Source of the DNA: an uncultured bacterium
GTDB taxonomy: Bacteria > Margulisbacteria > WOR-1 > CAVSGV01
Reading direction: 5' to 3'
NCBI GenBank assembly: GCA_963699255.1
Contig: OY969425.1
Coordinates: 270,001 to 302,000, forward strand
Length of the DNA: 32,000 nucleotides
The notes under the pieces were generated by a model. It did not search any database. It was not told where the DNA came from and was given only the letters and a program-made list of their open reading frames with translations. The translations under genes were made by a program, and so were the position numbers. Positions 5,215 through 29,224 of this stretch are shown here, piece after piece. Every line of letters starts with the position of its first letter. The first letter of the stretch is position 1.

Positions 5215-5245
5215 ATATCCCTCCTAATGATTATTTTACCTTAAA

Positions 5246-6010: not shown

Positions 6011-6126
6011 TCTTTTACTTTTCTCCTCCCTGTCCCGAAGAGTTTCGGGGCGTTCTATCTATCGTACCGAGGAGCCAAAACCTTGCATTTTGACAAGACT
6101 TCGACGAGCTCAGTCGAGTCGTTCAA

Positions 6127-6208: not shown

Positions 6209-6241
6209 ACTTCTACAGTGCCAAGCGCACACATCTGACAT

Positions 6242-10105: not shown

Positions 10106-10134
10106 ATATTAATCGGTAATCGTGTCTTTGTCAA
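10106..10134 (-). promoter_or_regulatory. Sigma70-type promoter for rho (long leader)
   Basis: On the minus strand: consensus TTGACA (10129-10134), a 17-nt spacer, then TAATAT (10106-10111). It lies about 210 nt upstream of the rho ATG. Confidence 0.5.
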
Positions 10135-10169
10135 GCCCTAAAAGAATGCTTTCAGCATCTCTTTAGGGC
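10135..10169 (-). terminator. Candidate terminator hairpin ending the fibre operon
   Basis: Imperfect 35-nt hairpin. The outer stem is GCCCTAAA/TTTAGGGC and the inner stem is ATGCT/AGCAT with a 3-nt loop. It sits 48 nt after the 10217 stop. A second hairpin lies at 10173-10205. There is no clear U-tract, so confidence is modest. Confidence 0.35.
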
Positions 10170-10216
10170 AAGCCCCGAATGAATGCCCGCGTCATCTCAT
10201 CGGGGCAGGCGCGAAG

Positions 10217-11989
10217 TTACGGCGTAACGCCGGCGAAACTCTTGTAATCCTCCATCTCTTTTTCAAACATTCCTGAACGATAGAGCATTTCTATCAGATC
10301 CCCCATAGTGGCTGTCTCTTCAGGCGATCTGCCTGCCAGATATTCCAGAAGGCTGGCCTCATCCACATTTGTCGCTTTCGAAACATATCGCGCGGATTCC
10401 GCCCTTGTGACAGACCGGTCAGGCTTAAAAGTGCCGTCTTCATAATCTGTCATGATGCCGGCAGATTTTACCGCATTTATGAAGCTCGCCGCCCAGTGCA
10501 TGCGGTTTACGTCTTTGGAGACCGTTTTCTGCGTCAGGCTTAGATCAAGTTTTTTGGCTTTTGACATTATCAGTGCCATCAGCCCCCTTGAGAGCGGCTT
10601 GTTCAGTTTGTAATCCTTTCCAAGATAGCCGTAAAGTTCCGTATAGATGACCATGTATGCGAAACTCTTATTTTTTACTTCGTTTATGCTCAGGTCGACG
10701 GGGACATAGAATCTTACTATCCTCCTTGGTATCTCGGCTTCCGAACTGTCCGTATCCCTTAATTTTATTTGTATCTCATTCTTACCTATATTAAGAGGGA
10801 CAGATGCTTCAAATGCTCCGCTGCCTGATACGGCCAGTTTATTGCCGTATATCCAGACATCTGTCACATCAGGATCCACAGTGCCGCTGAAAACCTGTTC
10901 GGTGTCCAGAGTGTACAGGTTGCCGGAAGGAATGAGTGATATCTTCTGCATGACCGTCTTGATCGCGGCGACCTTTTCTGGCGCTGCGGCCGGGGCCGGG
11001 GCTTCTTTTGCAGGCGCGGCTGCCGGCGCAAAAACGGGCGCGCTGTAGAAAGTAAGGGAAACAATATTGGAAGCGATGTTCGTCTGGGCGTAATTCTGCA
11101 GGTATGCAAGATCGATCTTTACCCCTGAATAATCAAAGCCAAGACCAAAAGTAGTGTTGTTCGTCAGTTGCCCGCCGATCGCGGAGCTCGCCTCTTGATT
11201 ATAGCCGGCCCTGAGACTCAAATTCGGATGGACCTTCCATTCCGCGCCAAAGTGCATGGGCCAGGGAACATTGTCTCCGCCAAGGAACATATCCTCATCA
11301 AGCGCGAATTTTGCATTATACTCCAGCCACTGGAACGCCATCCCTATTTTCGTGATGAACGGCATGTCCTCCGTTTCAAAATCCCCGTAGATCTTTGACC
11401 CGCCGATAACGTTTTGGAGGTTCAATCCGTAGGATATCCACTTTTCCGGGGTGTATTTTAATCCAAGGTCAATGTTATAACCCGAGCCGGACCCGTTGAC
11501 GTCGCCGGTGTATCCTTTAGAGTAATATTTTAATGTCGCGCCGCCGTACATGTTCGGCTCATTTCCTGTGGATGGCCCGATCGATCCAAGCTCTTTTCCG
11601 TAGGACAGGACCAGGGCCTGGTTATAGAAATTTGTTGTGCCTGTAGTGCCTCCACCTGAAACATCAATGCCGTTTATTTTTGACGCGACATATCCTATCC
11701 CGAAAACACCCGATGTGGTAGGGATGACGCCGCAAAACATCGTATATTGATATTCATTCAGGAAATTTGAGCTCATCGTGGATATCTGCCAGCTTTTCTG
11801 GCTTCCGAGACCTGCGGGATTCATGAACATGGCGTTCACGTCATCCGCGACCGCAACAAATGCTTTGCCCATGCCCAGCGGGCGGGCCCCGATTCCGACG
11901 GCAATGGGATCGTCATAATAAACGATGCACCAGCAGTTTGCGGAGTACAGGATTAAAAAAGTAGATACCGCTACAAGGAGTTTTTTCAC
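10217..11989 (-). CDS. PorV/PorQ (FadL-like) family outer-membrane beta-barrel protein fused to a C-terminal SLH domain
   Basis: 590 aa with a signal peptide (MKKLLVAVSTFLILYSA). The N-terminal block GIGARPLGMGKAFVAVADDVNAMFMNPAGLG is the signature opening of PorV/PorQ/FadL-type barrels. Aromatic-rich alternating beta-strand sequence runs to about aa 315. An Ala/Pro linker follows (APVFAPAAAPAKEAPAPAAAPEK), then an Ig-like region of about 100 aa, then one SLH domain. Confidence 0.7.
   Translation of the reverse strand: MKKLLVAVSTFLILYSANCWCIVYYDDPIAVGIGARPLGMGKAFVAVADDVNAMFMNPAGLGSQKSWQISTMSSNFLNEYQYTMFCGVIPTTSGVFGIGYVASKINGIDVSGGGTTGTTNFYNQALVLSYGKELGSIGPSTGNEPNMYGGATLKYYSKGYTGDVNGSGSGYNIDLGLKYTPEKWISYGLNLQNVIGGSKIYGDFETEDMPFITKIGMAFQWLEYNAKFALDEDMFLGGDNVPWPMHFGAEWKVHPNLSLRAGYNQEASSAIGGQLTNNTTFGLGFDYSGVKIDLAYLQNYAQTNIASNIVSLTFYSAPVFAPAAAPAKEAPAPAAAPEKVAAIKTVMQKISLIPSGNLYTLDTEQVFSGTVDPDVTDVWIYGNKLAVSGSGAFEASVPLNIGKNEIQIKLRDTDSSEAEIPRRIVRFYVPVDLSINEVKNKSFAYMVIYTELYGYLGKDYKLNKPLSRGLMALIMSKAKKLDLSLTQKTVSKDVNRMHWAASFINAVKSAGIMTDYEDGTFKPDRSVTRAESARYVSKATNVDEASLLEYLAGRSPEETATMGDLIEMLYRSGMFEKEMEDYKSFAGVTP
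10370..10520 (-). other. S-layer homology (SLH) domain within the OM barrel protein
   Basis: KDVNRMHWAASFINAVKSAGIMTDYEDGTFKPDRSVTRAESARYVSKA matches the SLH consensus (DV...HWA...I....G...GY.DG.F.P....TRAE.A). There is a single copy, located at the C-terminus. Confidence 0.75.
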
Positions 11990-11993
11990 GGTG

Positions 11994-12863
11994 TTATTGG
12001 CGGAAGACCGCGACCTTTACTCGGCCAAGCTCTCTGGTGCTGCCGCCAGCATTTGAAACGATGCTGAGGACATAAACGCCTGTAGGCACCTGTTCATTGA
12101 AATAGGTCAGCGCATTCCAGGGGACGGCGTTATCTCCGGCAGAACCGCCGTTCTCTCCCGCGGGGATCGTTTTTTGCCAGATAAGCGCGCCTTTCTGGTT
12201 GAACAGATACAGCGATATTGTCGCCGCGGTATTGAGCTTATATTTTATCATTGTCGGACCCGTGGAAGGATTGAACGGATTTGGATCGTTGGACGGAGTA
12301 CCTATTATATCCACCTGACCCGGAGATTGAACGGTGAATCCGCCGGCCAGAACGCCGATCTTGCCGTAGCCCACGTTCGTGACCAGAACGTTCCTTGGTC
12401 CGACAGCGGCATTGTTCAGGTCAAAAGTGCACTCCATGCTCGTTGAACTTTCGATCGTGACCGTTGTCCCGTTAATGGTCGGCTGGCTCGGGCCGGTCAA
12501 GCTCGCTGTAGCGTCAGTGGAGATCAAGTAGCCGTTGATCACGACCCTGTATGACGCGTTGTTGTAACCTGCGTGCGGATCGATCTTTTTTACTACGGGA
12601 GTTTCTGCCGTGCTGAATGCGCCGGTCCCGTATACCACTCCAATGAACCTGCCTTCAAGCGTAAAACCTGGGCTCGTGGTGATCTGAGGAACGTTATCCC
12701 GCAGCTTGCCGATGAGCCTGTAACCGGATGATTCTATGGATGCGCCCCCAAGGTCCATGACTTCGGCGGATATCGCGTAGTTCGCGCTGGTGGCGGCTTG
12801 AGCGCCGCAACACCAGAAAAACATCAATAAGATCAATACAGACTTTTTTATTTTTGTCATCAA
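11994..12863 (-). CDS. Secreted protein with IPT/Ig-like middle domain and T9SS-type (FlgD-Ig/Por_Secre_tail-like) C-terminal domain
   Basis: 289 aa with a signal peptide (cleavage around AQA-AT). An N-terminal SANYAISAEVMDLGGASIESSGYRL motif is present. The C-terminus begins PNPFNPSTGPTMIKYKL...ISLYLFNQKGALIWQ...PTGVYVLSIV...KVAVFRQ, the characteristic layout of T9SS type-A sorting / FlgD-Ig-like domains. Its stop lies 4 nt from the start of the barrel gene. Confidence 0.6.
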   Translation of the reverse strand: MMTKIKKSVLILLMFFWCCGAQAATSANYAISAEVMDLGGASIESSGYRLIGKLRDNVPQITTSPGFTLEGRFIGVVYGTGAFSTAETPVVKKIDPHAGYNNASYRVVINGYLISTDATASLTGPSQPTINGTTVTIESSTSMECTFDLNNAAVGPRNVLVTNVGYGKIGVLAGGFTVQSPGQVDIIGTPSNDPNPFNPSTGPTMIKYKLNTAATISLYLFNQKGALIWQKTIPAGENGGSAGDNAVPWNALTYFNEQVPTGVYVLSIVSNAGGSTRELGRVKVAVFRQ

Positions 12864-12886
12864 TATTGTTTTTTCATGATATGAAT

Positions 12887-14197
12887 TTATTTGTAAGCAC
12901 GAATAATTATCACTCCGTTCGCGCCGGCTCCGCCAGTTGCGGTATAGGTAGTGGTATTGGATCTTTGCGCGGAACCTCCCGCTCCGCCGCCTCCGTATAA
13001 CGAACCGGCTGTTCCTGTAGTGGCAGTATTGGTAGTAGCTATAAATACACTAGGGCTATGTGTGCTGAATAAGGAATTGCCGCCTGCGCCTGAAATACCG
13101 GAAGTAGATGACAGACGGTATCCCGCTCCGCCGGCGCCGCCCGGAATATTTATATCGCCAGTTGCTCCCGCTGTACCTCCTGCGCCGCCTGCGGCAGTTA
13201 AGGTAGTAGTTCCAGAGGCCATATTTGTACCTCCGCTGCCTCCATTTGCGGTAATAGCGGAAGCATTGAATTGAGTCGGGTTTCCTGCAGTGCCTACGGC
13301 AGTGCTGCCTCCTGCGCCGCCAGTTCCTACTGAGAAAGTATATGTAGTGCCCGGGCTGGTCGCGATACGCTTTATTGTGCATGCTCCGCCGCCTCCGCCT
13401 CCACCCACAGCTCCAGAGGGATTGGCACCAGTAGTACCGCCGGAACCGCCGCCGCCACCACCGATCAAAATAACTTCAATATCAGTTACGCCGGCGGGAA
13501 CAGTAAACGGGCTTGTGCTTGCCGTTGTTAATACTGCGATTCCGGAGAGAACCCCGAGATTTGTTAGGTTCGCTCCGCTGCCGGCAAAAGCAGTTGCGGT
13601 CACGGTTCCTATAAAATTCGCGTCGCCGCTTACGCCAAGAGTCGTGCTGAATGTACTGTATGTTCCGATAGATAATTTATTTTTAAAGGCGCAATAGGAA
13701 TCGCCAACGGAGAGGGAAGGATTGTCCGGATCCGCGGTTGCTCCGGAACCTCCGCCGATGTGAAATGAGGGGTCGCCTGTGCGCGCGCTCGCCGCCCTTG
13801 CTTCAAGTCTGATATTCCGCTGGCCTGATGTCACATCGGCGGTCTTGAAAATAAAATCGATCAGGGTGGTGGTAGGATCTGTCGATTCGTATATCGCGCC
13901 GTTTTCACCGTTCCTGTTGCGCAGGCGCAAGATGGATGAACCGTAGACGTCGCCGTCCTGACGCATGACCAATTCTTTGGAAGCGACAATAGTCCCGCCT
14001 TCCGTTGTGCCGACCCCGATATTTCCGTATACATCCAGCATCTGCACGGGATTTGTTTTTCCGATCGCCACCTGGGTGGTTACATCAACTGTGCCTATCA
14101 CGGTCAAGAACCCCTCGACCGACACATCTTTTGTTACGGCAAAAGCCGGAACAGAAACGATGCATATTATTAATATAAAAAATAGTATATTTTTCAT
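12887..14197 (-). CDS. Secreted glycine-rich repeat protein (paralogue 1), tail-fibre-like N-terminus
   Basis: 436 aa with signal peptide MKNILFFILIICIVSVPAFA. An N-terminal IGKTNPVQMLDVYGNIGVG motif is shared with the giant proteins. The FTVPAGVTDIEVILIGGGGGGSGG entry motif is followed by about 200 aa of Gly/Ala/Thr/Ser-rich sequence ending GVIIIRAYK. Confidence 0.6.
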   Translation of the reverse strand: MKNILFFILIICIVSVPAFAVTKDVSVEGFLTVIGTVDVTTQVAIGKTNPVQMLDVYGNIGVGTTEGGTIVASKELVMRQDGDVYGSSILRLRNRNGENGAIYESTDPTTTLIDFIFKTADVTSGQRNIRLEARAASARTGDPSFHIGGGSGATADPDNPSLSVGDSYCAFKNKLSIGTYSTFSTTLGVSGDANFIGTVTATAFAGSGANLTNLGVLSGIAVLTTASTSPFTVPAGVTDIEVILIGGGGGGSGGTTGANPSGAVGGGGGGGACTIKRIATSPGTTYTFSVGTGGAGGSTAVGTAGNPTQFNASAITANGGSGGTNMASGTTTLTAAGGAGGTAGATGDINIPGGAGGAGYRLSSTSGISGAGGNSLFSTHSPSVFIATTNTATTGTAGSLYGGGGAGGSAQRSNTTTYTATGGAGANGVIIIRAYK

Positions 14198-14221
14198 TCT
14201 GACAAAATTCTTACCGCGAAA

Positions 14222-15181
14222 TTAGTAATATACGATAACGAGTCCCGCAGCTCCGGCCCCGCCTGCTCCGCCATTCTCCTGGCCGCCGCCGCCACCGCCG
14301 CCGGGAGGAGTTCCTGCTCTTCCGGCAACGCCCCCTCCAGCGGCATTAGCGCCGGGGCCGCCAGCTCCGCCTGAACCGCCCATCGGGCTTCCGCCTCCTG
14401 TGCCGCCGCTGGCTCCATCAGCTGCTTGAGAATTTCCGCCTGTTCCGCCTGTGAGATTAATTGTCCCGCCTGATCCTGCGCCTCCTGCCCCGCCTGTAGT
14501 TGTGGCTCCTGTTGAACCGCCGGCACCCGTAAAAGTGGTTCCGCCGGCAAAACTGCTGTTGTTGCCGTTTGCTCCGGCGCCTCCGCCGGTTCCAACTGTT
14601 ACGGTCACACTAGCACCGCTTACACTTACAAGACCCGCGCTATAACCTCCGCCTCCGCCTCCGCCTCCGGATGTATTATTGCCTGCCGTTACTCCTCCTC
14701 CTCCTCCTCCCCAAACCTGAACGTAAACTTTACTTACTCCCGCAGGTCTTGTCCATGTTCCGCTGGATGTAAACACTTGTATGTTTTGCGGGACTCCTGT
14801 TCCAGGTACCCAGGCTCTGGTTTCTGACGCTGGGAGGGAAGACGCTTCAAAAGTCACTTTTTTAGTGTTGTCAGCGCCATTCTGGATATATGTGGAAGTA
14901 TCGGTCATGGTCTTATTTGTCAGGGTCTGTGTTTCCGCGGTCATTGCGAAGGTATCATTGGCGCCGGGATCCGATATGGTAAGCGTTCTTGCGGCAGCAG
15001 GGTTGTTCCAAAGAAGCGTGTAATTAGCCGTTGTCTGTTTGAACAGGATATTTGTGTTAAGGTCCAGCTGGCCTTCAATTGTGATATTGCCTGTTACGGC
15101 AAAAGCGCCGCATGAAAAAAATAATACAAGAAAAAAACAGGCAAAATTTCTTTTCATGAATATTCGCTCATAATAATTCAT
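14222..15181 (-). CDS. Secreted glycine-rich repeat protein (paralogue 2)
   Basis: 319 aa. The likely true start is the ATG at 15157 (MKRNFACFFLVLFFSCGAFA signal peptide). It contains the QTLTNKTMTD motif shared with the giant proteins. WTRPAGVSKVYVQVWGGGGGG then leads into a Gly-rich C-terminal half ending GLVIVYY. Confidence 0.6.
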   Translation of the reverse strand: MNYYERIFMKRNFACFFLVLFFSCGAFAVTGNITIEGQLDLNTNILFKQTTANYTLLWNNPAAARTLTISDPGANDTFAMTAETQTLTNKTMTDTSTYIQNGADNTKKVTFEASSLPASETRAWVPGTGVPQNIQVFTSSGTWTRPAGVSKVYVQVWGGGGGGVTAGNNTSGGGGGGGGYSAGLVSVSGASVTVTVGTGGGAGANGNNSSFAGGTTFTGAGGSTGATTTGGAGGAGSGGTINLTGGTGGNSQAADGASGGTGGGSPMGGSGGAGGPGANAAGGGVAGRAGTPPGGGGGGGQENGGAGGAGAAGLVIVYY

Positions 15182-18100
15182 TAATACTTATATATCAGCA
15201 CAGAAACGCTGTTGCCTGATCCTGCCGCGCTTGTTACTGCTATTCCTATCATCTTGCCTGTTTGGAGATTGGAATAACCGTTCACACTGCCGGCAGCCGT
15301 AGATGTGCATATCGCGTCGCCGATGTTTATCGCCTGATTGGCAACTGCGTTCGTTATCCTTCCCGAAACGGCTACATATGCCGTGGTTCCTTCAACGGCC
15401 TGAACGAAACCAACAACATTTGGATCTTTTGCAGTGGTAGATGTTTTTACCGTATTGGCACTTGTCGTATCAAGGACAACAACATTACCCGCCACGACAG
15501 TGCCTGAAAAAGCAAAAGGCACAACAATAAGTCCTGATCCGGAGGTTGAAGTATTTAATCTGGCCGTGTTAGCCGTAACGGTATCTATAGTGACCAGGGC
15601 GGTTGTGCTTATGTCGGAACCGGTTATCGTTCCATTAAGGATCGCATCCGATGTGACCGAGCCTGTTGCCATCTTTGCCGCCGTTATCGTGTTAGACGCA
15701 ATTGCGTCAGAAGTTACTGAACCAGTTGCCATCTTCGCAGCTGTGATGGTGTTAGCCGCGATCGCATCTGAAGTGACTGAACTTGTAGCTATCTTGGCTG
15801 CTGTGATGGTGTTAGCAGCAATAGCATCAGAAGTGATTGAACTGGTTGCCATGTTGGCGGCAGTGATGGTGTTATTACCGAGTTTAGCCCCTGTTATCGC
15901 ATTAGCAGCGATCGCGTCTGAAGTGATTGAACTGGTTGCCATATTAGCGGCAGTGATAGTATTGTTCCCGAGCTTAGCGCCTGTTATCGCGTTAGCGGCA
16001 ATAGCATCTGAAGTGATTGAACCGGTTGCCATATTAACAGCGGTGATAGTGTTGCCTGCGATCTTGGCATTGGTTACCGAACCGCTGGTCAAGTCACCTG
16101 CAACAATGCTGTTGGAGAGGTTCAATTTAGAGTAGGCGATAGCAGCGGATCCGTTAATGTCGACATTGAGTATTGTGCCATCAAGGATGGCGTCTGAAGT
16201 GATAGACCCTGTTGCCATATTGGCAGCAGTGATGGTGTTGTTACCGAGCTTAGCGCCTGTAATCGCGTTAGCCGCGATCGCATCTGAAGTGATTGAACCG
16301 GTAGCCATGTTTGCAGCGGTGATAGTGTTGTTGCCGATTTTTGTGCCTGTTACCGAGCCGCTGGTCAGATCACCGGCGACGATACTATTGGAGAGGTTCA
16401 ATTTAGAGTAGGCGATAGCAGCGGATCCGTTAATGTCGACATTGAGTATTGTGCCATCAAGGATGGCGTCTGAAGTGATAGACCCTGTTGCCATATTGGC
16501 AGCAGTGATGGTGTTGTTACCGAGCTTAGCGCCTGTAATCGCGTTAGCCGCGATCGCATCTGAAGTGATTGAACCGGTAGCCATGTTTGCAGCGGTGATA
16601 GTGTTGTTGCCGATCTTTGTGCCTGTTACCGAGCCACTTGTCAGATCACCGGCGACGATGCTGTTCGATAGGTTCAACTTCGAGTAGGCGATAGCCGCAG
16701 ATCCGTTTATATCCGCATTGAGTATCGTTCCGTCAAGGATCGCATCTGAAGTTACAGAACCTGTTGCCAGCTTTGATGCGGTTATGGCTCCGTCGCTTAC
16801 AGTTGCGGCTGTCGAAGCATTTCCAGCCAAGGTTGCATAGTTTGCTGAGACTGCAGAAGTTGCTGAGCCTGCCAAAGCTGCATAATTGGCTGAAGTGGCA
16901 GTGCCTGCCAAAGTAGCTGAGCCGGCCAAAGTAGCATAGTTAGCATTTGTAGCGAGATCGGCGTAGGCAGCAGTCGATGCATTTCCAGCCAAGGTTGCAT
17001 AGTTAGCTGAGACTGCGGACGTTGCTGAGCCAGCCAAAGTTGCATAATTAGCAGAAGTAGCAGCGCCTGCGGAGGTTGCAGTACCTGCTAGGGCTGCGTA
17101 GTTAGCAGAAGTAGCAGTGCCTGCCAAAGTAGCTGAGCCGGCCAAAGCAGCATAGTTAGCATTTGTAGCGAGATCTGCAGAAGCAGCAGTAGAAGCATTT
17201 CCTGCCAAAGTTGCATAATTGGCGGAAGTTGCAGTCCCTGCAGAAGTAGCAGAGCCAGCTAAGGTTGAGTAGTTTGCAGATGAAGCAGTGACTGCCGAGG
17301 TTGCAGTTCCGGCTAAAGTTGCATAGTTAGCAGAAGTTGCATTTCCTATTACCGTTCCACTAAGAGTCCCGCTGAAGGTCTCTGCGGTTACTATTCCTGT
17401 TACAGCGAGATTGCCTGTTGCCCTGTCAAAAGAATAGGTTTTTGTGCCGCCGTTGTTATTCAGATAAAAATCTTTATCATCTACCCTGAAGATATATTGC
17501 TGGACACCCGCAATAGTATCGAACAATCCAATGCGCATAGGTTTGATGCGTGCGTAACCATAATTATTCCCATCAAAAACGCCTTGAGTATTGGCCCCAA
17601 CTACAACAATACCTTCCGATGTCGCATTTTCGGGATCGCCGTCAGCCGTAAAAGCACCTAATTTTATCACACTGCTATTTTCATAGTTCCATATCATTGT
17701 TCTTCCATATGGGTCGATATTGCCTAATATTATTTTTGCTTTTATTCGATCCGTTTCAGCTGAGATATAGCCTGTTGTGTTGATATTGATGGCCGATGCC
17801 AGATCAACTCCTAATATAGTTCCATCAAGGATCGCATCAGAAGTTACAGAGCCGGTTGCCATTTTTGACGCGGTTATTGCTCCGTCACTTACCGTAGCAG
17901 CGGTAGAAGCATTTCCTGCCAAGGTTGCATAGTTAGCTGATGTGGCAGTGCCTGCGGAAGTTGCAGTAGCTGCCAATGAAGCATAGTTAGCAGAAACAGC
18001 GCTGGTGGCAGTACCAGCTAAAGTTGCATAATTAGCAGAGATAGCAGTTCCTGCTGAAGTTGCAGTACCGGCCAGAGTTGCGTAATTTGCGGAGGCTGCA

Positions 18101-19689
18101 GAGGTTGATGTGCCTGCTAATATCGCATAATTAGCATTTGTAGCGAGGTCAGCTGAGGCAGCAGTGGATGCATTTCCTGCCAAAGCTGCATAGTTAGCTG
18201 AAGTAGCAGTGCCTGCGGAGGTTGCAGTACCCGCTAGAGCCGCATAGTTAGCAGAAGTAGCGGTTCCTGCCGAAGTTGCAGTGCCAGATAAGATCGCATA
18301 ATTTGCATTAGTAGCAAGATCAGCCGACACTGCGGTCGATGCAGTTCCTGACAGGTTTGCGTAATTTGCGGAAGCAGCTGAAGTTGAGATCCCGGCTAAT
18401 GTTGCGAAGTTAGCTGATGTGGCAGTTCCTGCAGAAGTTGCTGTACCGGCCAGAGTTGCGTAATTTGCGGAGGCTGCAGAGGTTGATGTGCCTGCTAATA
18501 TCGCATAGTTAGCATTCGTAGCGAGGTCAGCTGAGGCAGCGGTAGAAGCATTTCCAGCCAAGGTTGCATAATTGGCAGAAGAAGCAGTGCCTGCGGAGGT
18601 TGCAGTACCCGCTAGAGCCGCATAGTTAGCAGAAGTAGCGGTTCCTGCCGAAGTAGCAGTGCCAGATAAGATCGCATAATTTGCATTAGTAGCAAGATCA
18701 GCCGACACTGCGGTCGATGCAGTTCCTGACAGGTTTGCGTAATTTGCGGAAGCAGCTGAAGTTGATATCCCGGCTAATGTTGCGAAATTAGCTGATGTGG
18801 CAGTTCCTGCAGAAGTTGCTGTACCTGCTAGAGCTGCATAATTAGCGGAAGAAGCATTGGTAGCATTTGTTGCGTTGGTAGCGTTATTTGCATTGTTAGC
18901 CCAATCAACTTTTGGAGAGCCAGAAGATCCACCACCGGAGCCAGCCCAGTTAGTGGCATTAGTCGCATTGGTGGCGTTGGTAGCTGAAGCAGCAAGTATC
19001 GCGTAATCAGCAGTAGAAGCACTGGAAGCAGTTCCTGCAGAAGTTGCTGTACCTGCCAGAGTTGCATAATTAGCAGAAGTAGCAGTTCCTGCGGAAGTTG
19101 TAGTGCCGGCCAAAATTGCATAGCTGGCATTTATAGCAAGATCGGCGGATGCAGAGGTAGAAGCATTTCCTGCCAGAGTTGCATAATTAGCAGAAGTAGC
19201 AGTTCCTGCGGAAGTTGCTGAGCCAGCCAAAGCTGCATAGTTAGCTGAAGTAGCAGTTCCTGCCGAAGTTGCAGTGCCAGATAAGATCGCATAATTTGCA
19301 TTTGTGGCAAGATCAGCCGAAGCAGCAGTGGAAGCATTTCCTGCTAGAGCTGCATAATTGGCGGATGAAGCAGTGCTTGCAGAAGTAGCTGTGCCGGCTA
19401 ATGTTGCGAAGTTAGCGCTGGTCGCTGTGATATTTGTGATCGTATTTAGTGAACCATCTATGGTCTTGTTCGTCAGCACTTGAGCATCCGATGTTCCGAC
19501 AATTCGACCAATCGTTCCATGTGAAATAACCTCAGCTGTATGAGTATTGAATGTAGAAAGATCTGTCTTTAAATCAACTGATGACGCAGTCGCGAAGTAG
19601 GAGGGGAGGCTCCCGCCTAATTTGTTCGCGTCTTCGGACGTTCCCATGACCGTTCCGTTAAATGTCCCGCTGAACGATTCGGCTGTCAC
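15181..19689 (-). CDS. Giant repeat fibre protein B, C-terminal portion (no own signal peptide; reading frame is open and homologous up to 19815)
   Basis: 1502 aa.
- The N-terminal about 90 aa align with aa about 610-700 of the 2022-aa protein ([20 protein letters not shown]...[21 protein letters not shown]).
- Next come long Ala/Ser/Thr 'SANYAxLAG' 18/21-residue repeats.
- A unique globular insert of about 150 aa follows.
- Decapeptide 'xITxxx[ILM]xx[GN]' repeats come next.
- The last about 120 aa form a C-terminal domain shared with the 2022-aa protein.
Only a GTG is available as a start, and the upstream in-frame sequence is homologous to the paralogue. Confidence 0.7.
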   Translation of the reverse strand: MTAESFSGTFNGTVMGTSEDANKLGGSLPSYFATASSVDLKTDLSTFNTHTAEVISHGTIGRIVGTSDAQVLTNKTIDGSLNTITNITATSANFATLAGTATSASTASSANYAALAGNASTAASADLATNANYAILSGTATSAGTATSANYAALAGSATSAGTATSANYATLAGNASTSASADLAINASYAILAGTTTSAGTATSANYATLAGTATSAGTASSASTADYAILAASATNATNATNATNWAGSGGGSSGSPKVDWANNANNATNATNATNASSANYAALAGTATSAGTATSANFATLAGISTSAASANYANLSGTASTAVSADLATNANYAILSGTATSAGTATSANYAALAGTATSAGTASSANYATLAGNASTAASADLATNANYAILAGTSTSAASANYATLAGTATSAGTATSANFATLAGISTSAASANYANLSGTASTAVSADLATNANYAILSGTATSAGTATSANYAALAGTATSAGTATSANYAALAGNASTAASADLATNANYAILAGTSTSAASANYATLAGTATSAGTAISANYATLAGTATSAVSANYASLAATATSAGTATSANYATLAGNASTAATVSDGAITASKMATGSVTSDAILDGTILGVDLASAININTTGYISAETDRIKAKIILGNIDPYGRTMIWNYENSSVIKLGAFTADGDPENATSEGIVVVGANTQGVFDGNNYGYARIKPMRIGLFDTIAGVQQYIFRVDDKDFYLNNNGGTKTYSFDRATGNLAVTGIVTAETFSGTLSGTVIGNATSANYATLAGTATSAVTASSANYSTLAGSATSAGTATSANYATLAGNASTAASADLATNANYAALAGSATLAGTATSANYAALAGTATSAGAATSANYATLAGSATSAVSANYATLAGNASTAAYADLATNANYATLAGSATLAGTATSANYAALAGSATSAVSANYATLAGNASTAATVSDGAITASKLATGSVTSDAILDGTILNADINGSAAIAYSKLNLSNSIVAGDLTSGSVTGTKIGNNTITAANMATGSITSDAIAANAITGAKLGNNTITAANMATGSITSDAILDGTILNVDINGSAAIAYSKLNLSNSIVAGDLTSGSVTGTKIGNNTITAANMATGSITSDAIAANAITGAKLGNNTITAANMATGSITSDAILDGTILNVDINGSAAIAYSKLNLSNSIVAGDLTSGSVTNAKIAGNTITAVNMATGSITSDAIAANAITGAKLGNNTITAANMATSSITSDAIAANAITGAKLGNNTITAANMATSSITSDAIAANTITAAKIATSSVTSDAIAANTITAAKMATGSVTSDAIASNTITAAKMATGSVTSDAILNGTITGSDISTTALVTIDTVTANTARLNTSTSGSGLIVVPFAFSGTVVAGNVVVLDTTSANTVKTSTTAKDPNVVGFVQAVEGTTAYVAVSGRITNAVANQAINIGDAICTSTAAGSVNGYSNLQTGKMIGIAVTSAAGSGNSVSVLIYKY
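16114..16665 (-). repeat. 276-bp (92-aa) in-frame tandem duplication, 2 near-identical copies plus degenerate flanking copies
   Basis: 16114-16389 and 16390-16665 differ at only a handful of positions. The antisense ORFs at 16157-16411 and 16433-16687 have near-identical translations. The repeat encodes SAAIAYSKLNLSNSIVAGDLTSGSVTGTKIGNNTITAANMATGSITSDAIAANAITGAKLGNNTITAANMATGSITSDAILDGTILNVDING. Confidence 0.9.
18060..18816 (-). repeat. 378-bp (126-aa) in-frame tandem duplication within the SANYA stalk
   Basis: Sequence starting at 18066 (taccggccagagttgcgtaatttgcggaggctgcagagg...) recurs at 18444. Sequence at 18301 recurs at 18679. The offset is exactly 378 bp, with high identity. Confidence 0.85.
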
Positions 19690-20681
19690 AACACCAGATG
19701 TGTTGATGTTGATATTGGATGCAAGGGAACCGCCCGATATTTTATTTGTTGAGGTATCAACTTTGATCCAGTCAACACCGGATATTTGTGAATTAGATAT
19801 ACCGGAATTTTTACTTCAAGTGAACCATTACCATTCAGATCAACAGTGACATTATCGTACTTATTTGTTGCGGCTTCACCGGTCGGACCAATAAGGCCTT
19901 GAATTCCTTGAGGCCCGGCTTCACCAGTTAAGCCTATAGGACCTTGGGGACCAATAGCTCCAGTCTCACCAGTTGCACCGATAGGGCCTTGAATTCCTTG
20001 AGGCCCGGCTTCACCAGTTAATCCGATAGGACCTTGGGGACCAATAGCGCCAGTTTCACCAGTTGCACCGATAGGACCTTGAATTCCTTGAGGGCCGGCT
20101 TCACCGGTTAATCCGATAGGGCCTTGTATACCTTGAGGCCCGGCTTCACCAGTTAATCCGATAGGACCTTGTGGACCAACAGCGCCAGTCTCACCGGTTA
20201 GACCGATCGGCCCTTGCATTCCTTGAATGCCTTGGATACCTTGAGGGCCAGCTTCACCGGTTGGGCCTTGTGGGCCTGCTTCGCCCGATGCCCAGATCGG
20301 ATTTTGAGATGCGCCTTGGGTCTTTAAAAAGTATCCGCTGGTTCCTGCCGTAAGACTTGCCCAATTTGTCCCATTGAAATAAAGAATATCTCCTTGAACC
20401 TGGCCGGGAATGTTAAGACCCGCAGCCATCGATGCCGTTCCTGATAAAGGGGTGTAATTTGCCGTGATATTTGAAAGAGCAGAGCCGTTTCCAATGAAGA
20501 AGTCTGCTTCAACCGTGCCTCCGTTAGCCAGTATTCCCGACGGCGTGAATAATTGAGATTCTATCGTTGCAGCTCCCAGAACTATAAGACCACCGGGGAC
20601 CTTTAATCCCAGGGCAACAGGATACGCAGCACCTCCAAACAGGAAGATCAGAATCAGTACGGTAAGTACCATTCTTTTCAT
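19686..20681 (-). CDS. Giant repeat fibre protein B, N-terminal portion (signal peptide + collagen-like domain)
   Basis: 331 aa with signal peptide MKRMVLTVLILIFLFGGAAYP. The block [35 protein letters not shown] is homologous to the 2022-aa protein. There are 46 uninterrupted Gly-X-Y triplets, then ATNKYDNVTVDLNGNGSLEVK. The last 40 codons are out-of-frame nonsense relative to the paralogue. Confidence 0.7.
   Translation of the reverse strand: MKRMVLTVLILIFLFGGAAYPVALGLKVPGGLIVLGAATIESQLFTPSGILANGGTVEADFFIGNGSALSNITANYTPLSGTASMAAGLNIPGQVQGDILYFNGTNWASLTAGTSGYFLKTQGASQNPIWASGEAGPQGPTGEAGPQGIQGIQGMQGPIGLTGETGAVGPQGPIGLTGEAGPQGIQGPIGLTGEAGPQGIQGPIGATGETGAIGPQGPIGLTGEAGPQGIQGPIGATGETGAIGPQGPIGLTGEAGPQGIQGLIGPTGEAATNKYDNVTVDLNGNGSLEVKIPVYLIHKYPVLTGSKLIPQQIKYRAVPLHPISTSTHLVL
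19872..20287 (-). repeat. Collagen-like Gly-X-Y region (46 triplets)
   Basis: Hand count of uninterrupted [18 protein letters not shown] ... GPT GEA triplets, covering aa 133-270 of the 331-aa ORF. Confidence 0.9.
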
Positions 20682-20726
20682 TTCAGCACCTTCATTTTAT
20701 TTGTATGTTGCTTGCTTATATACATT

Positions 20727-23700
20727 TTAGAATTTATGGATCCAGATCGTGACTGTCCCTCCCGAATCATTGGTCAATGCTATGCCTATGCATGCGCCAA
20801 CCGTCAAATCGCCGGGTACGGACTGTATTTTGCCGGGCGCTAAGTCTGTTTCAACAGCATCTCCGCGGTGTATCGTACCTGTCGCTTTCGCGTTGGTCAC
20901 CCTGCCGGAGTATGCGACATATACTGTCTGGCCCGCGGCGGTTGTTGTGTTCATCGCAAAGCCCATCACGCCCTGGTCCGCTTCAACCGTTGTTTCCCTT
21001 ACCTGATTATCGGCGCTAGGATCATAGGCCACAACATCCCCGGCCGCTATGGCTGAAGCCGCTGTCATTGGAAGTGCAATGGTGCCGCTGCCGGAAGTGG
21101 AACTGTCGCTTAAATATGCATTTTTGCCGCTCGGGATAACAACATCCCCGCCGTTAAAGGATTCGGCCGTAACATATCCGCTCGTGCTGATATTGATCGC
21201 GCTAGATACGTTTGCCGCCGTTGAAGCAGTCCCTGCCAATGTAGCATAATCAGCGGAAACGGCGGTAGTAGAAGTTCCCGCCAGAGTCGCATAATTTGCT
21301 GTTGCTGCATTTGTGGCCGTGACTCCGGTCAGCTTCGATCCATCACCGTAGAATCTGCCGGTTGAGGATTCGATAGAAGCTGAACCGATCTTGACATTTC
21401 CGTTGACTGACAACTCATATCCCGCTTCGGGGGTCAAAGTTCCCAAGCCGGTGCTGCCATTCATAACAAGGAACCTTCCGGTATCAGCAGCGCTACCGCC
21501 GCTCCCCAAACTGACCTTGAAATCTCCGCCCTTTGTGCCGGGTCCGCCCGAGCCGGTCCCTGTAGTAAAGAGCATGCTTCCTCCCGCCACCCCACCTCCG
21601 AGGCCTGCAGTAAAAGAAAACCCGCCGGCGTTTATGCTGCCCGAAGAGGCCGTGAAAGAGAAAGAACCGCCGCCGCCGGACCCGCCTCCGGTGGACATTG
21701 ATATTCCTCCACCAACGCCGCTGGCCGTAGCGCCGGAAACTGTAAATGTTCCTCCGGTACCTCCGGGAGAAGTATTAGCACCGCCTGTTAGAATTACGCT
21801 GCCACCCGCGCCTGATCCTATTGGCCCGCTACCGGCGGTCAATCTAATGGCTTCTCCCGATGTGCCGTCATTGCCGCCCACGACATGCAGGACACCGGTC
21901 GGATTTGAAGTCCCGATGCCGACGTTGCCGCCAAAAGTGGCCCCTGCCGAATTAGTCAAAGTTCCCGTCATGATATCGCCGGCCTTAAGGACTGCTGTCG
22001 TGGCAACTGTTGAAGTGCCGGACAAAGTTGCATAAGCTGCGGCAGCCGCAGTCGATACCGTGCCAGCTAAATCAGCATAATTAGCTGTGTTAGAATTTCC
22101 AGAGCAAGTAGAGGATGTTCCTGATAAAGCAGCGAAATCAGCAGAGGCGGCAGAAGTTGCAGTTCCTGCCAAGGTTGCATAATTAGCAGAAGCGGCAGTA
22201 GTAGAAGTTCCTGCCAGGGTCGAATAATTTGCCGTTGCTGCATTTGTTGCCGTTATGCCGGTCAGCGCCGATCCATCGCCGTAATATTTGCCGGTTGAGG
22301 ATTCAATAGAAGCTGAACCGATCTTGACATTTCCGATGACAGAGAGCCTGATTCCGGCTTCCGGGGTCAATGTTCCTATCCCGACGTTGCCGCCCATAAA
22401 AGTAAATTTAGCATTATTTCCACCTTCGGAGAGATTCGTAAAGAACATAGATCCGGGTGTTGGAGAATTGGACAGGATGAAATTAAGATCGCCGGCATTG
22501 CCAGCACTGCCGCCTACACCCGTCGTTAATGTTATATTACCCCCTTTTTCATTTTCGCCCGCGGAGGTAGTTCCATTTTGGCCTGTTATGGTTATAGCCG
22601 CCCCCGGATTGCCGCTTGGGGCGCTTCCGCCATTTACGCTTAAAATTCCTCTAACATCCAGCTTCGCTCCCGGACTCGTGGTTCCAATGCCGACGTTGCC
22701 GCCTGAAACAATAAGTTGATTAGTACCGACTGTTAATCCGCTTGCGGGCAAGGTCAGAGTTCCGGTCATGGTGTCGCCGGCTTTTAGCACATTGTCTGAG
22801 GCCGCGCCCGAACAGGCGGACGAAGTTCCACTCAAAGTAGCAAAATCAGCAGAAGAGGCGGTAGTAGCAGTTCCTGCCAAAGACGCGTAATTTGCAGCAG
22901 CCGCAGCCGATACCGTTCCAGCTAAATCAGCATAATTAGCTGTGTTAGAATTTCCAGAGCAAGTAGAGGATGTTCCTGATAAAGCAGCGAAATCAGCAGA
23001 GGCGGCAGAAGTTGCAGTTCCTGCCAAGGTTGCATAATTAGCAGAAGCGGCAGTAGTAGAAGTTCCTGCCAGGGTCGAATAATTTGCCGTTGCTGCATTT
23101 GTTGCCGTTATGCCGGTCAGCGCCGATCCATCGCCGTAATATTTGCCGGTTGAGGATTCAATAGAAGCTGAACCGATATTGACATTTCCGTTTACTGACA
23201 ATTCGTATCCGGCTTCCGGAGTCATCGTTCCCAATCCGATGCTGCCGTTCATAACGCTGAATCTTCCGTTATCGGCGGCACTGCCACCGCTACCCAAATT
23301 GACCCTAAAATCCCCGCCCCTTGTGCCGGGCCCACCCGAGCCAATTCCTGTAGTAAATGTCATTCCCCCTCCCGTACCTCCGCCGCCGAGGCCGGCAGTA
23401 AAGGAAAATCCGCCGCCGGCACCGGCCCCTGAAGCAGCCGTGAAAGAGAAAGAACCGTTACCGCCGGATCCTGCTGCGGAGGTCATTGATATACCCCCGC
23501 CTCCGCCGCCGATTGAACCGCCGGAAACTGTTATCGCTGCTCCGCCAGCACCGGGAGAAAGAGAACCACCACCATTTATCAGGACACTACCACCCGCGCC
23601 TCCTCCTGCTGGTCCAGCACCCGCAATCAATCGAATGGATTCTCCCGATACGCCGTTGTTGTCGCCCACAACATGCAGTTTTCCTGTCGGACTCGTCGTC

Positions 23701-26700
23701 CCGATGCCGACATCGCCTCCTATGACAACAAGTTGACTGGTGCCGACCAATAAACCGCTGGCGGGCAGAGTCAAAGTTCCGGTCATGGTATCGCCGGCCT
23801 TAAGGACTGCTGTCGTGGCAACCGTTGAAGTGCCGGACAAAATTGCGTAATCTGCAAAAGCTGCAGTCGATGCCGTTCCAGCTAAATCAGCATAATTAGC
23901 TGTGTTAGAATTTCCAGAGCAAGTAGAGGATGTTCCTGATAAGATCGCGTAAGAAGCTGAGCCTGAACAGGATGACGCAGTTCCACTCAAAGTCGCATAA
24001 CCCGCATTAGTTGCTGTTCCACTTAAAGTTGCGTATACTGCGGTTGAAGATGTGCCGGATAATACGGCATAATTTGCCGTCGTTGCCGTGACCCCGGTCA
24101 GCGCAGATCCGTCGCCGTAATATTTGCCTCCGGCTTCCAGAGTGATGCTTCCAGCCACCTGAAGTTTTTGTAAAGGATTCGTTGTCCCGATGCCGACATT
24201 GCCGACCGCATTAGAGCCATTATGCGCTAAAATAACATTACCCGAAGTCCCCCCCGTAATCCCAGATACATAAACAGAACCACCATTTGGCCCGGCACCC
24301 CCAAAAAGATACAGGTTGCCTGGAGTGCCGCTGCTAGATCCCGCCTGTACAGTAAGATTTCTACCAGTGGTAGCTTCACCTTGTATGGATATGGTTCTGG
24401 CGGCTCCCGAAGATAGCAGGATATTACCGTTAACCTCAAGGCTTGCTCCCGGACTCGTTGTCCCGATGCCGACCTTGCCGCCTGAAACAACCAGTTGACT
24501 GGTGCCGACTGTTAAACCGTTTGCGGGCAAAGTCAGCGTTCCTGTCATTGTATCGCCGGCCTTAAGGACTGCTGTGGTGGCAACTGTTGAAGTGCCGGAC
24601 AAGGTTGCATAATTTGCATTGGCCGCGGTGACATTTGTAATTGTATTGAGCGAGCCGTCTATTGTCTTATTGGTCAGCACTTGAGCATCCGATGTCCCGA
24701 CTATCTGGCCGGTCGTTCCGTGCGCTATCACTTCACCTGTATGGGTATTGAAGGTGGCAAGGTCAGCCTTAGATTCAACTGATGCCGCTGTTGCAAAGTA
24801 GGAGGGGAGGTTACCGCCTAACCTGTTCGTGTCCTCGGAAGTACCCGTGAATGTCCCGCTGAACGCTGTCGCGGTTACAAGTCCTGTTGTGTTGATATTT
24901 ATATTCGTTGCAAGAGCGCTGTCCGCTATCTTATTCGTGGCCGTGTCAATTTTGCTCCAGTCAACCCCCGATATTTGCGAATTGGATATACCCAAAGCTT
25001 TTACCTCAAGTGACTGATTGCCATTCAGATCAACAGTGATATTATCGTACTTATTTGTTGCGGCTTCACCGGTTAATCCGATAGGTCCTTGAGGACCGAC
25101 AGCACCAGCTTCACCAGTCAAACCGATAGGACCTTGAGGACCGATAGCTCCAGTTTCACCAGTCAAACCGATAGGACCTTGAGGACCGATAGCTCCAGTT
25201 TCACCAGTAGGACCAACAGCGCCAGTCTCACCTGTTAAACCAATAGGACCTTGAATGCCTTGAATACCTTGTGGTCCGGCTTCACCAGTTAAGCCTATAG
25301 GACCTTGCGAACCGACAGCGCCAGTTTCGCCAGTTGCACCAGTTAGACCTTGAATTCCCTGAATACCTTGTATACCTTGAGGACCTGCTTCACCAGTTAA
25401 ACCTATAGGACCTTGCGGACCGACAGCGCCAGTTTCGCCAGTTGCACCAGTTAGACCTTGAATTCCCTGAATACCTTGTATACCTTGAGGACCTGCTTCA
25501 CCAGTTAAACCTATAGGACCTTGCGGACCGACAGCGCCAGTTTCGCCAGTTGCACCAGTTAGACCTTGAATTCCCTGAATACCTTGTATACCTTGAGGAC
25601 CTGCTTCACCAGTTAAGCCTACAGGACCTTGAGGACCGATAGCTCCGGTTTCTCCTGTTGCACCAGTCAGACCAATAGGACCTTGAATTCCTTGAATACC
25701 TTGAAGGCCTTGAATGCCTTGTAAACCTTGAGGCCCAGCTTCGCCAGTCAGACCGATCGGACCTTGAATTCCCTGTAAACCTTGAGGTCCTGCTTCGCCA
25801 GTTGGACCTTGCGGGCCTGCTTCGCCCGATGCCGGCGCCCAGATCGGATTTTGAGATGCGCCCTGGGTCTTGAGGAAAAGTCCATTAGTTCCTGCTGTAA
25901 GCCTTGTCCATCTTGATCCATTGTAATACAGAACATCACCTTGCGATGCGGCATCTGTTGTTACAACAGTTGAAGATAATCTTGTGTTGCTGATCGTCCC
26001 TGATGTGATATTCGTCGCGCTCAGGTTTGTGAGAGAGTTGCTTCCTCCGTCCAAAGTTTTGTTGGTCAATGTTTGCGCGTCCGTTGTAGTTACGACCACG
26101 TTCGTATCGATCGTTAAAGTTCCTGTCGCTGTTATCGGGCCTCCAAGCAATCCTACACTTGTGTTGACCTGGGTGACAGTGCCTCCGCCCCCTCCGCCTC
26201 CTGTTGCAGATATTTCGATCGTTTGACCGCTTTGAGAGAGAGAGACATTCGTTCCGCCTTTAAGGATTACAGTTCCAGTTAAAACAGTCGCGCCGGATGA
26301 GGATATTCCTGTAACAGAGACCGGAAATATTGAAGAGGCGAGTTTTCCAGTGCCGTCGGTAAACGGAATTATGTCGGCTCCCGACGCTTCTATCGATTTT
26401 CCAGCGACTGTTGTTGAATCGTCCGCCTGAAGCGCCCTGTACGCGTGCGCCGCGCTCGCTATCTGGACCCTTGGCGTCATTTCGCCGTCCGATCCGATCT
26501 CAACACCCAACCATCTGTTCGAGCCGTTAAAAGCATTGGACTGGAAAAAAATTGCCGCGCTGAATATGCCGTTGCTGTCCGGAGTAAGAGCTTCCGTGGA
26601 TGTGCCGTTCGTGACTGGAACGCCGCCGCTTGCCTGGCTGTATAACCTGAATGTGAAGCTTTGGGAAGTTGTTACGGGATTGCCGCTTGAATCCGTCAGC

Positions 26701-26795
26701 CGTCCCTCATAACCAATTATTTGCGGTATTGCCGCATAACACACCCCTGCGAAGAGTGATAATATGAACAGTAAAAAGATAAATTTCTTGAACAT
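20727..26795 (-). CDS. Giant secreted fibre protein A: N-terminal domain, collagen-like stalk, four tail-fibre-like units with glycine-rich inserts, conserved C-terminal domain
   Basis: 2022 aa with signal peptide [21 protein letters not shown] and a GGGAGGG Shine-Dalgarno sequence.
- 85 uninterrupted Gly-X-Y triplets span aa 324-578.
- 'LKAGD(T/I)MTGTLT ... (V/I)GIGT(T/S)(S/N)P' occurs four times.
- '(Y/F)YGDGS(A/K)LTG(V/I)TAT' occurs four times.
- SANYA-type stalk repeats and Gly-rich blocks are present (e.g. [29 protein letters not shown]).
- The C-terminal about 125 aa are homologous to the end of the 1502-aa ORF. Confidence 0.8.
22063..22322 (-). repeat. 260-bp perfect intragenic repeat, copy 1
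   Basis: Base-for-base identical to 22918-23177 (offset 855 bp) on manual alignment. It encodes the stalk segment ...[82 protein letters not shown]. Confidence 0.9.
22918..23177 (-). repeat. 260-bp perfect intragenic repeat, copy 2 (a third 65-bp copy of its core lies at 23878-23942)
   Basis: Identical to 22063-22322. The first 65 bp (ccagctaaatcagcataattagctgtgttagaatttccagagcaagtagaggatgttcctgataa) also recur at 23878-23942. Confidence 0.9.
25062..25828 (-). repeat. Collagen-like Gly-X-Y region (85 triplets) containing a 108-bp tandem repeat
   Basis: Hand count gives 85 uninterrupted triplets. 108-bp (12-triplet) units start at 25321, 25429 and 25537 and are nearly identical. They encode [36 protein letters not shown] three times. 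Confidence 0.9.
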
Positions 26796-26887: not shown

Positions 26888-26916
26888 ATTTTACCGCTTT
26901 CATTTTTACGCGTCAA
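26888..26916 (-). promoter_or_regulatory. Sigma70-type promoter for the fibre operon
   Basis: On the minus strand: TTGACG (26911-26916), a 17-nt spacer, then TAAAAT (26888-26893). It lies in an AT-rich 218-bp intergenic region, about 93 nt upstream of the ATG at 26795. Confidence 0.45.
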
Positions 26917-27532: not shown

Positions 27533-27558
27533 ATATTCCTCTGTGTATTTATCGTAAC

Positions 27559-27587
27559 ATTTTACCGGAAAATTCACTAAATTTCAA
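27559..27587 (-). promoter_or_regulatory. Sigma70-type promoter for the lipoprotein gene
   Basis: On the minus strand: TTGAAA (27582-27587), a 17-nt spacer, then TAAAAT (27559-27564). It lies about 27 nt upstream of the ATG at 27532. Confidence 0.45.
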
Positions 27588-29201: not shown

Positions 29202-29214
29202 AATGCTGTAAAAT
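29187..29214 (+). promoter_or_regulatory. Sigma70-type promoter for the polyamine cluster (divergent from queF)
   Basis: TTGCAA (29187-29192), a 16-nt spacer, then TAAAAT (29209-29214). The ATG at 29225 is only 10 nt downstream of the -10 element. Confidence 0.4.
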
Positions 29215-29224
29215 AAAAAAGATC

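Follow-up and report, generated by a model that had tools for sequence, protein, structure and literature searches.

In Porphyromonas, PorV and PorQ hold on the cell surface the proteins PorU and PorZ, which keep their C-terminal domains (CTDs) (PMC5562754); for type B CTD proteins, this part is played by PorP-like barrels that are linked to PorE, a periplasmic protein associated with the outer membrane (PMC9143113). The MAT fibres of Bdellovibrio resemble phage tail fibres and are used in prey recognition; their surface anchor is unidentified (PMC10769870). The operon described here comes from an uncultured bacterium of the Margulisbacteria and lies in a stretch of 32,000 nucleotides (positions 270,001 to 302,000 of contig OY969425.1 in assembly GCA_963699255.1); this whole stretch is called the window, and positions of the operon and its surroundings are counted from its first letter. 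The six genes encode two giant fibre-like proteins (fibre A and fibre B), two glycine-rich proteins (Gly1 and Gly2), a small CTD-ended protein (the adaptor), and a PorV-like barrel that continues into an SLH region (the barrel/anchor protein). We regard it as an even call whether this chromosomal operon serves to build a fibre apparatus on the cell surface, in which the CTD of the adaptor would be docked on a wall-tied barrel, in a flagellated two-membrane bacterium.

In the proposed arrangement, fibre A, fibre B, Gly1 and Gly2 are Sec-exported mosaics of modules shared with phage tail fibres, built from collagen stalks, repeated units of probable beta-helix type, and swappable cement or Gly-rich tips; by analogy with the MAT fibres of Bdellovibrio, the four proteins most likely form trimeric adhesive fibres, which would have to cross the outer membrane for display at the cell surface. 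By a rough estimate from the 85-triplet collagen stalk and the other modules, such fibres would measure about 100 nm or more. The adaptor would keep its CTD and use it to dock on the extracellular side of the barrel, in the way that PorU is docked on PorV and PorZ on PorQ; its N-terminal segment, which contains three repeats and is by itself predicted to be disordered, would hold the fibres. The periplasmic tail of the barrel protein (linker, immunoglobulin-like domain and SLH region) would bind a cell-wall polymer, and the complex would in this way be fixed to the outer membrane and to the wall.

The adaptor and the PorV-like barrel

The barrel/anchor protein (10217-11989, minus strand; 590 amino acids, aa) begins with a signal peptide, followed by a 14-strand barrel of the PorV/PorQ family (aa about 27-315), an Ala/Pro linker, an immunoglobulin (Ig)-like domain (aa 350-426), and the SLH region (aa 435-585). 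It passes the PorV_fam model NF033709 (98.6 bits against a cut-off of 90) and falls far under the equivalog cut-offs for PorV (33.5 against 250 bits), PorQ (35.4 against 220 bits) and PorV2 (55.1 against 325 bits). The structural model (predicted local distance difference test score, pLDDT, of 76) has about 14 strands over aa 68-315, the Ala/Pro linker, the Ig-like domain, and a helical domain; its top Foldseek matches are the PorV chains 8gl6_F and 6h3i_F (TM-score, normalised to the target, of 0.57-0.63), and FadL-type channels come next. The SLH family (PF00395) is recognised at 46.8 bits against a cut-off of 20.8, with three repeats and one TRAE motif that can be read in the sequence; in Foldseek, the tail matches three-repeat SLH structures, and a profile search of solved structures adds OmpM-type proteins and SlpA; Sap, SbsB and SpaA are among the SLH proteins matched. 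Both ends of a 14-strand barrel face the periplasm, and therefore the SLH tail should be periplasmic and bind a wall polymer. Homologues of the barrel swap this C-terminal domain, which can be SLH, SPOR (P0037, P0041), LysM (P0038, P0044) or TPR (P0048-P0064). The SPOR and LysM domains that replace SLH are peptidoglycan-binding as well. The exchange of SLH, SPOR and LysM within the barrel family fits a periplasmic tethering role. A large protein collection yielded 64 relatives of the barrel, and those that carry a name belong to Candidatus Margulisiibacteriota.

The adaptor (11994-12863, minus strand; 289 aa) consists of a signal peptide, a conserved N-terminal segment (aa 24-86), an IPT-like Ig domain (aa 88-180), and a beta-sandwich that resembles type IX secretion system (T9SS) CTDs (aa 183-289). 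The N-terminal segment contains three S-x-x-Y/F-x-I/L repeats and is predicted to be unstructured as a monomer (pLDDT below 50); the remainder is modelled as two confident Ig-like domains, with the C-terminal beta-sandwich at aa 186-289. The best structural match of the model is PorU, with generic Ig folds close behind, and the C-terminal domain bears the PNPFNP...GVY...L pattern of type A CTDs and of FlgD_ig. Despite scores below the curated cut-offs, the family profile and the predicted fold both suggest that the end of the adaptor is CTD-like. Some adaptor homologues are annotated with PF13860 and one with PF13585 in precomputed annotation. In a survey of 82 genome loci, for which the barrel genes counted had at least 900 bp of upstream sequence, a profile of the adaptor CTD matched the C-terminal ends of 57 open reading frames (ORFs; 60-3297 aa) beside PorV-like barrels; one of them, an ORF of 1463 aa in locus L013, passes the Pfam cut-off for FlgD_ig. 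When the adaptor-family profile was searched against 1.84 billion proteins, giant proteins with multiple IPT-Ig repeats dominated the result, and about 15 full-length adaptor-type cluster representatives were found among the best 150 matches. In viral contigs, the adaptor found matches at the generic CTD level only.

The resemblance of both proteins to T9SS components raises the alternative that they are part of a full T9SS whose genes lie elsewhere in the genome; in that case, the barrel would be an ordinary shuttle or attachment protein of the PorV/PorQ kind, the adaptor would be ordinary T9SS cargo or a PorZ-like protein, and the fibres, exported by other means, would share nothing with them beyond the operon. 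We consider this explanation unlikely. The barrel does pass the PorV_fam cut-off and has a PorV-like structure, but its equivalog scores for PorV, PorQ and PorV2 are 33-55 bits where 220-325 are called for, and neither the tight pairing with one adaptor nor the fusion to SLH, SPOR or LysM is a canonical PorV feature. The adaptor has an end like that of type A CTDs and finds its best fold match in PorU, CTD-ended cargo is common beside PorV-like barrels across phyla, and neighbouring proteins in loci L116 and L013 bear Por_Secre_tail or FlgD_ig domains, all of which a full T9SS would explain; yet none of the core genes (SprA/Sov, PorK-N, PorU) occurs in the window or in the barrel neighbourhoods checked. 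Large ORFs beside related barrels were also checked for an SprA-like translocon, and none was found; they encode DNA polymerase III alpha, UvrA, ClpB and CTD surface proteins, and one ORF of 2354 aa has no family match. The searchable papers place the T9SS in the Bacteroidetes (PMC11611037) and do not mention PorV in connection with the phyla concerned here.

Gene linkage in related loci

The adaptor gene lies directly upstream of the barrel gene in loci L001, L003-L006, L083 and L116 and in the P0027 contig, and one short ORF away from it in L002. In addition, the contigs that yielded adaptor homologues match in length those that yielded barrel homologues. Two of these loci share the arrangement of the window. 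In L083, where the barrel is 72% identical, all six genes occur in the same order and at the same chromosomal site, beside rho, Mur ligase, EamA and flagellar genes; their products are proteins of 2243 and 1542 aa, a pair of Gly_rich_2 proteins, and then adaptor and barrel. L001 (barrel 79% identical) is likewise syntenic, and there the Gly-rich tip is carried by a collagen fibre with the N-terminus of fibre B: in an 872-aa protein (positions 4686-7304 of L001), the fibre B N-terminal domain is combined with a collagen stalk, repeats of the B type and a Gly2-type tip, which is direct evidence of tip exchange between relatives.

A second type of cassette (L002-L005 and the P0027 contig) is located beside yggS, sepF and relA-type genes; adaptor and barrel are kept and the cargo differs, comprising DUF2341/LamG proteins, a K1-lyase-like protein, and large proteins with the N-terminal domain of fibre A. 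The 1,770,855-bp contig from which the window was taken carries another barrel (P0006, 61% identical) along with another adaptor (P0083, 65% identical); judged from the orthologous loci L002-L005, this second pair probably sits beside yggS, sepF and relA-type genes with DUF2341/LamG cargo. In the more distant L116, whose barrel is 37% identical and carries SPOR in place of SLH, a fibre that ends in Peptidase_S74 stands in front of the adaptor-barrel pair. Across loci, the cargo thus ends in collagen/cement, Gly-rich or Peptidase_S74 tips, or consists of DUF2341/LamG proteins. A third type of fibre C-terminus, ...V(L/F)(I/V)xYKR(R/A)P, was noticed in L002 (3925-7452), L004 (5978-6619) and L006 (948-4439). 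By these sequence comparisons, the constant core across Margulisbacteria and Saganbacteria is the pair of adaptor and barrel, with fibre-like proteins as interchangeable cargo.

Beyond the close orthologues, a CTD-ended ORF was found directly upstream of the barrel in 41 of the 82 surveyed cases, and directly downstream in 7 more. The pairing of barrel and CTD was seen in Margulisbacteria and Saganbacteria and in other phyla (Elusimicrobiota, Poribacteria, Desantisbacteria, and metagenome-assembled genomes labelled Clostridia), and a gene pair of CTD cargo and barrel may, by this sequence evidence, be general outside the Bacteroidetes group.

Linkage could also arise without functional meaning, if the barrel-SLH protein were a general link that joins outer membrane and wall, or a channel of the FadL type through which hydrophobic compounds pass, that happens to stand beside genes for surface proteins. 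FadL and TodX channels are indeed the next-best structural matches of the barrel after PorV, the SLH-bearing outer-membrane proteins OmpM and SlpA match its SLH part, and genomes contain several copies of the barrel family, some of them in housekeeping contexts without a CTD neighbour (L007, L011). This explanation appears distinctly improbable in view of the adjacency of adaptor and barrel, which persists where barrel identity has fallen to 37% and is seen at two chromosomal sites, and of the upstream cargo, which is always a secreted fibre-like or lectin-like protein; moreover, half of the barrels have a CTD neighbour, whereas by a rough estimate only about 4% of all ORFs in the same loci are of this kind.

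An earlier sequence-only reading of the window had proposed a single system of fibres tethered by a barrel with an SLH anchor, and had named three outcomes that would speak against it: homologous loci always embedded in complete prophages or tailocins, a barrel gene without conserved linkage to fibre genes, and ORFs created by chimeric assembly. The relatives examined point the other way in each case, since the loci are chromosomal and syntenic, fibre-like genes adjoin the barrel in every close orthologue and in the distant L116, and the gene order recurs in independent assemblies. The proposal is thus supported in part; it needs adjusting in that the conserved unit is the adaptor with the barrel, and the fibres are exchangeable.

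Fibre proteins, operon layout and flanking genes

Fibre A (20727-26795, minus strand; 2022 aa) starts with a Sec signal peptide and an N-terminal domain (aa 22-320), continues with a collagen stalk, four repeated modules and SANYA-type repeats, and ends in a C-terminal tip. The collagen triple-helix region (25062-25826, minus strand; aa 324-578) contains 85 uninterrupted G-X-Y triplets; it scores 89 bits with the Pfam collagen family (PF01391), compared to 81 bits for the 46 triplets of fibre B, and it also matches solved collagen structures. The collagen regions further match models of Legionella Lcl and of Scl, as well as BclA, with scores far under the family cut-offs that reflect the collagen repeats only. 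The four modules that follow the stalk are marked by GDTMTG, VGIGTTxP and GDGSxLTG motifs; GDTMTG and GDGSxLTG each occur four times in fibre A, SANYA occurs seven times in fibre A, 33 times in fibre B and once in the adaptor, and QxLTNKT is common to fibre A, fibre B and Gly1. The C-terminal tip resembles phage cement proteins (20730-21095, minus strand; aa about 1901-2022) and passes the Phage_cement_2 family (PF09956; 32 bits against a cut-off of 24); cement-like tips of this kind are also present in L001, L083 and L006. The corresponding tip of fibre B remains under the same cut-off of 24 with 19 bits, yet it is 40% identical to the tip of fibre A over a domain of 120 aa. Fibre A has many matches to tail-fibre families in PHROG, and a weak match (E-value 0.0055) to the Bdellovibrio MAT fibre Bd2133 (8ond).

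Fibre B (15181-20681, minus strand) is split in this assembly into ORFs of 331 and 1502 aa at an A5 homopolymer from which one base is missing (19808-19812, minus strand). When one A is added to this run, a single ORF of 1833 aa results, and the orthologue of L001, which is intact, has the identical sequence at the junction, DLNGNGSLEVKNSGISN; the split is either a homopolymer error of long-read sequencing or a slippery, phase-variable tract. In the repaired protein, a signal peptide and a B-type N-terminal domain precede 46 G-X-Y triplets; about 33 SANYA-type repeats come next, then tandem repeats of 92 aa and, at the end, a cement-like tip. Its gene contains near-identical tandem DNA repeats at 15640-16769 and 18017-19416 of the window, with periods of 276 bp (3.1 copies, 90% identity) and 378 bp (2.2 copies, 93%). 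The copy number of the fibre B repeats may be collapsed or variable in assemblies.

The two glycine-rich proteins are shorter. Gly1 (14222-15181, minus strand; 319 aa) has a signal peptide, a short N-terminal module with the motif QTLTNKT, and a Gly_rich_2 tip domain (PF21722, 42 bits against a cut-off of 24.3); it matches phrog_863 at 1e-39 and has an orthologue in L083. Gly2 (12887-14197, minus strand; 436 aa) is likewise made up of a signal peptide, an N-terminal module and a Gly_rich_2 tip domain (68 bits against the same cut-off), and it matches the tail-fibre proteins 7ypx and 7yfw of cyanophage Pam3 at E-values of about 1e-5. Tail-fibre families of PHROG match the fibre proteins and the Gly-rich proteins alike.

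It is highly implausible that the fibre genes are phage leftovers, or supply extra fibres to a tailocin or contractile particle whose genes lie elsewhere, with the barrel pair unrelated to them: every fibre module has profile-level relatives in phage tail-fibre families and one short match lies in a phage contig, but all four proteins carry Sec signal peptides, the window contains no capsid, terminase, sheath, tube, baseplate, integrase or lysis genes, the operon is syntenic in two other assemblies (L001 and L083), and no relatives of the barrel were found in viral contigs. The signal peptides on all fibre proteins fit export and not cytoplasmic phage assembly. With Gly1 and two thirds of the fibre A sequence as queries, tblastn gave no match in 50,697 phage records, although the low-complexity filter may hide some.

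All six genes are encoded on the minus strand, from 26795 down to 10217, with intervals of 45, -1, 24, 23 and 4 bp; they appear as seven ORFs because the one-base deletion splits fibre B. A sigma-70-like promoter match, TTGACG-N17-TAAAAT (26888-26916, minus strand), agrees with the consensus in 10 of 12 positions and precedes the start codon of fibre A by about 90 nt; it is a consensus match only, of a kind found 30 times in the region where 18 are expected. An Rfam search of the operon leader returned no regulatory RNA. At the other end, two imperfect GC-rich hairpins can be read from the sequence 3' of the barrel stop codon (10130-10214, minus strand); they lack a T-run, and a terminator scan called no canonical T-run terminator there. 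Past the hairpins, a separate promoter-like site for rho (10134-10106, minus strand) was recognised, again as a consensus match. Reading by eye, an n-h-c signal peptide with an AxA-type cleavage site is present at the start of every complete protein.

The sequence-only reading had described much of this layout. Its seven same-strand ORFs are where it placed them, and its intervals of 4-45 bp have to be widened to -1 to 45 bp; its promoter and terminal hairpin both exist as sites, the former only as a consensus match and the latter as imperfect hairpins without a T-run; and its Sec signal peptides on every complete protein were recovered on reading the sequences. The housekeeping flanks that it had recognised from rho and a kinase are confirmed, with Mur ligase, EamA, flagellar genes and QueF to be added, and its judgement that the locus is not a prophage is borne out by these flanks, by synteny, and by the absence of the barrel from viral contigs.

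On the side of the barrel, the flanking genes are rho, a Mur ligase gene, an EamA transporter gene and flagellar genes; on the side of fibre A, they are genes for a histidine kinase, QueF, a deoxyhypusine synthase and a decarboxylase. The flagellar cluster (200-6010, minus strand), downstream of rho, Mur ligase and EamA, encodes FliK-like and FlgD-like proteins, a hook/rod protein, FliM, FliN, FliO, FliP, FliQ and FliR; the organism is therefore probably motile. A tRNA-Leu gene with anticodon GAG (6126-6209, minus strand) lies between the EamA transporter gene and the fliK-like gene. Just upstream of the operon promoter, an ORF of 187 aa (27014-27577, minus strand) has no Pfam or PHROG match. 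Further on (28731-31514), a minus-strand gene for a QueF-like protein precedes two overlapping plus-strand genes, one of the deoxyhypusine synthase family and the other for an ornithine/DAP/arginine decarboxylase; this group possibly represents a polyamine pathway of the homospermidine type.

Proposed fibre anchoring and comparison with known systems

The proposal that adaptor and barrel anchor the fibres has to be weighed against several observations that speak against it. The CTD of the adaptor stays under the curated cut-offs for FlgD_ig (PF13860; 18.8 against 27 bits) and Por_Secre_tail (TIGR04183; 17.8 against 23 bits), and about 40% of the surveyed PorV-like barrel genes have no CTD neighbour. 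No component that could move folded fibres or the adaptor across the outer membrane was found in the window or in the related loci examined. The contact between adaptor and fibres is a proposal. The sequence-only reading had taken short motifs shared by large and small proteins, SANYA among them, as an argument for one structure; SANYA is poor evidence for this, as the motif and the fibre repeats do not change in step from one locus to another. As a sign of contact between adaptor and fibres the motif was rejected, being kept in the adaptor even where the fibres of the cassette have no SANYA repeats. Fibre B is interrupted in this assembly. Finally, a search with the N-terminal domain of fibre A gave 17 matches, mostly on short contigs, and the two long contexts among them are a Bacteroidota-like contig without an adjacent barrel and a phage contig; the fibre modules are therefore not exclusive to barrel cassettes.

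Each part of the operon is of a known kind; the combination of a PorV-family barrel with SLH, a small CTD adaptor, and exchangeable collagen-stalked fibres, outside the Bacteroidetes, matches no system found in the searchable literature. Full-text searches did not find PorV together with Margulisbacteria, SLH or the related phyla. The operon links chromosomal fibres of the phage-tail-fibre type genetically to a specific anchor for outer membrane and wall, and offers a testable candidate for the anchoring question that was raised by the MAT fibres (PMC10769870). By analogy, it suggests that the docking principle of the type IX attachment complex, a barrel that receives a CTD, may be used in phyla for which the searchable papers do not mention a T9SS. 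A broader proposal, possible but on balance doubtful, is that the barrel and its neighbouring CTD protein form a self-contained display module, which may also move proteins, independent of type IX machinery and common in groups beyond the Bacteroidetes (among them Margulisbacteria, Saganbacteria, Elusimicrobia and Poribacteria); in the lineage described here, this module would be fused to a wall-binding domain and specialised through a small adaptor for exchangeable adhesive fibres that resemble phage tail fibres. If this were true, it would hint at the type of anchor that is missing for fibres of the Bdellovibrio MAT type. Some uncultured Margulisbacteria live attached to other cells, and it is plausible that the operon encodes an attachment apparatus for them; in that case, the exchange of tips seen among relatives would trace how the targets have changed.

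Among exported proteins with long G-X-Y stalks, Legionella Lcl, Streptococcus Scl1/2 and Bacillus BclA resemble the fibres in this property and differ from them in their non-collagen domains and in their anchoring. Phage tail fibres, such as those of Pam3, and phage cement proteins share the Gly_rich_2 tip, the cement-like tip, the collagen stalk and the repeat modules at the profile level; in contrast to them, the fibre proteins of the operon have signal peptides, a chromosomal housekeeping context without virion genes nearby, and no BLAST-level similarity to sequenced phages. Proteins of the OmpM/SlpA type likewise join an outer-membrane beta-barrel to SLH and tie the membrane to the wall, but they have an N-terminal SLH and a C-terminal porin; here the barrel is N-terminal and of the 14-strand PorV/FadL type, the SLH region is C-terminal, and the protein is paired with a CTD protein. 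The PorE-PorP-cargo complex and SprF-SprB provide a parallel in which a surface protein, held by its CTD on a cognate barrel, is connected to a peptidoglycan-binding module; unlike in these complexes, the barrel of the operon is a member of the PorV family, the wall-binding module, SLH, forms one protein with it, and the CTD resembles type A.

The T9SS attachment complex of Porphyromonas gingivalis combines, like the adaptor-barrel pair, a barrel of the PorV/PorQ family with a CTD-ended surface protein, and PorV and PorU are the best matches of the two models; the gene order is also alike, with porU directly upstream of porV in P. gingivalis. The operon departs from this complex in that a C25 peptidase domain is missing from the adaptor, the barrel continues into a linker, an Ig-like domain and SLH, the phylum is not within the Bacteroidetes, the window has no T9SS core genes, and equivalog scores are low. 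The MAT fibres of Bdellovibrio bacteriovorus are, as in the operon, chromosomally encoded proteins with signal peptides, a phage-tail-fibre-like build, repeated modules and swappable tips, and the Peptidase_S74 tip of L116 adds to this likeness; in contrast to the MAT fibres, those of the operon are built with collagen stalks, bear tips of the cement-like and Gly_rich_2 types, probably differ in their N-terminal domains, and are genetically coupled to an anchor pair.

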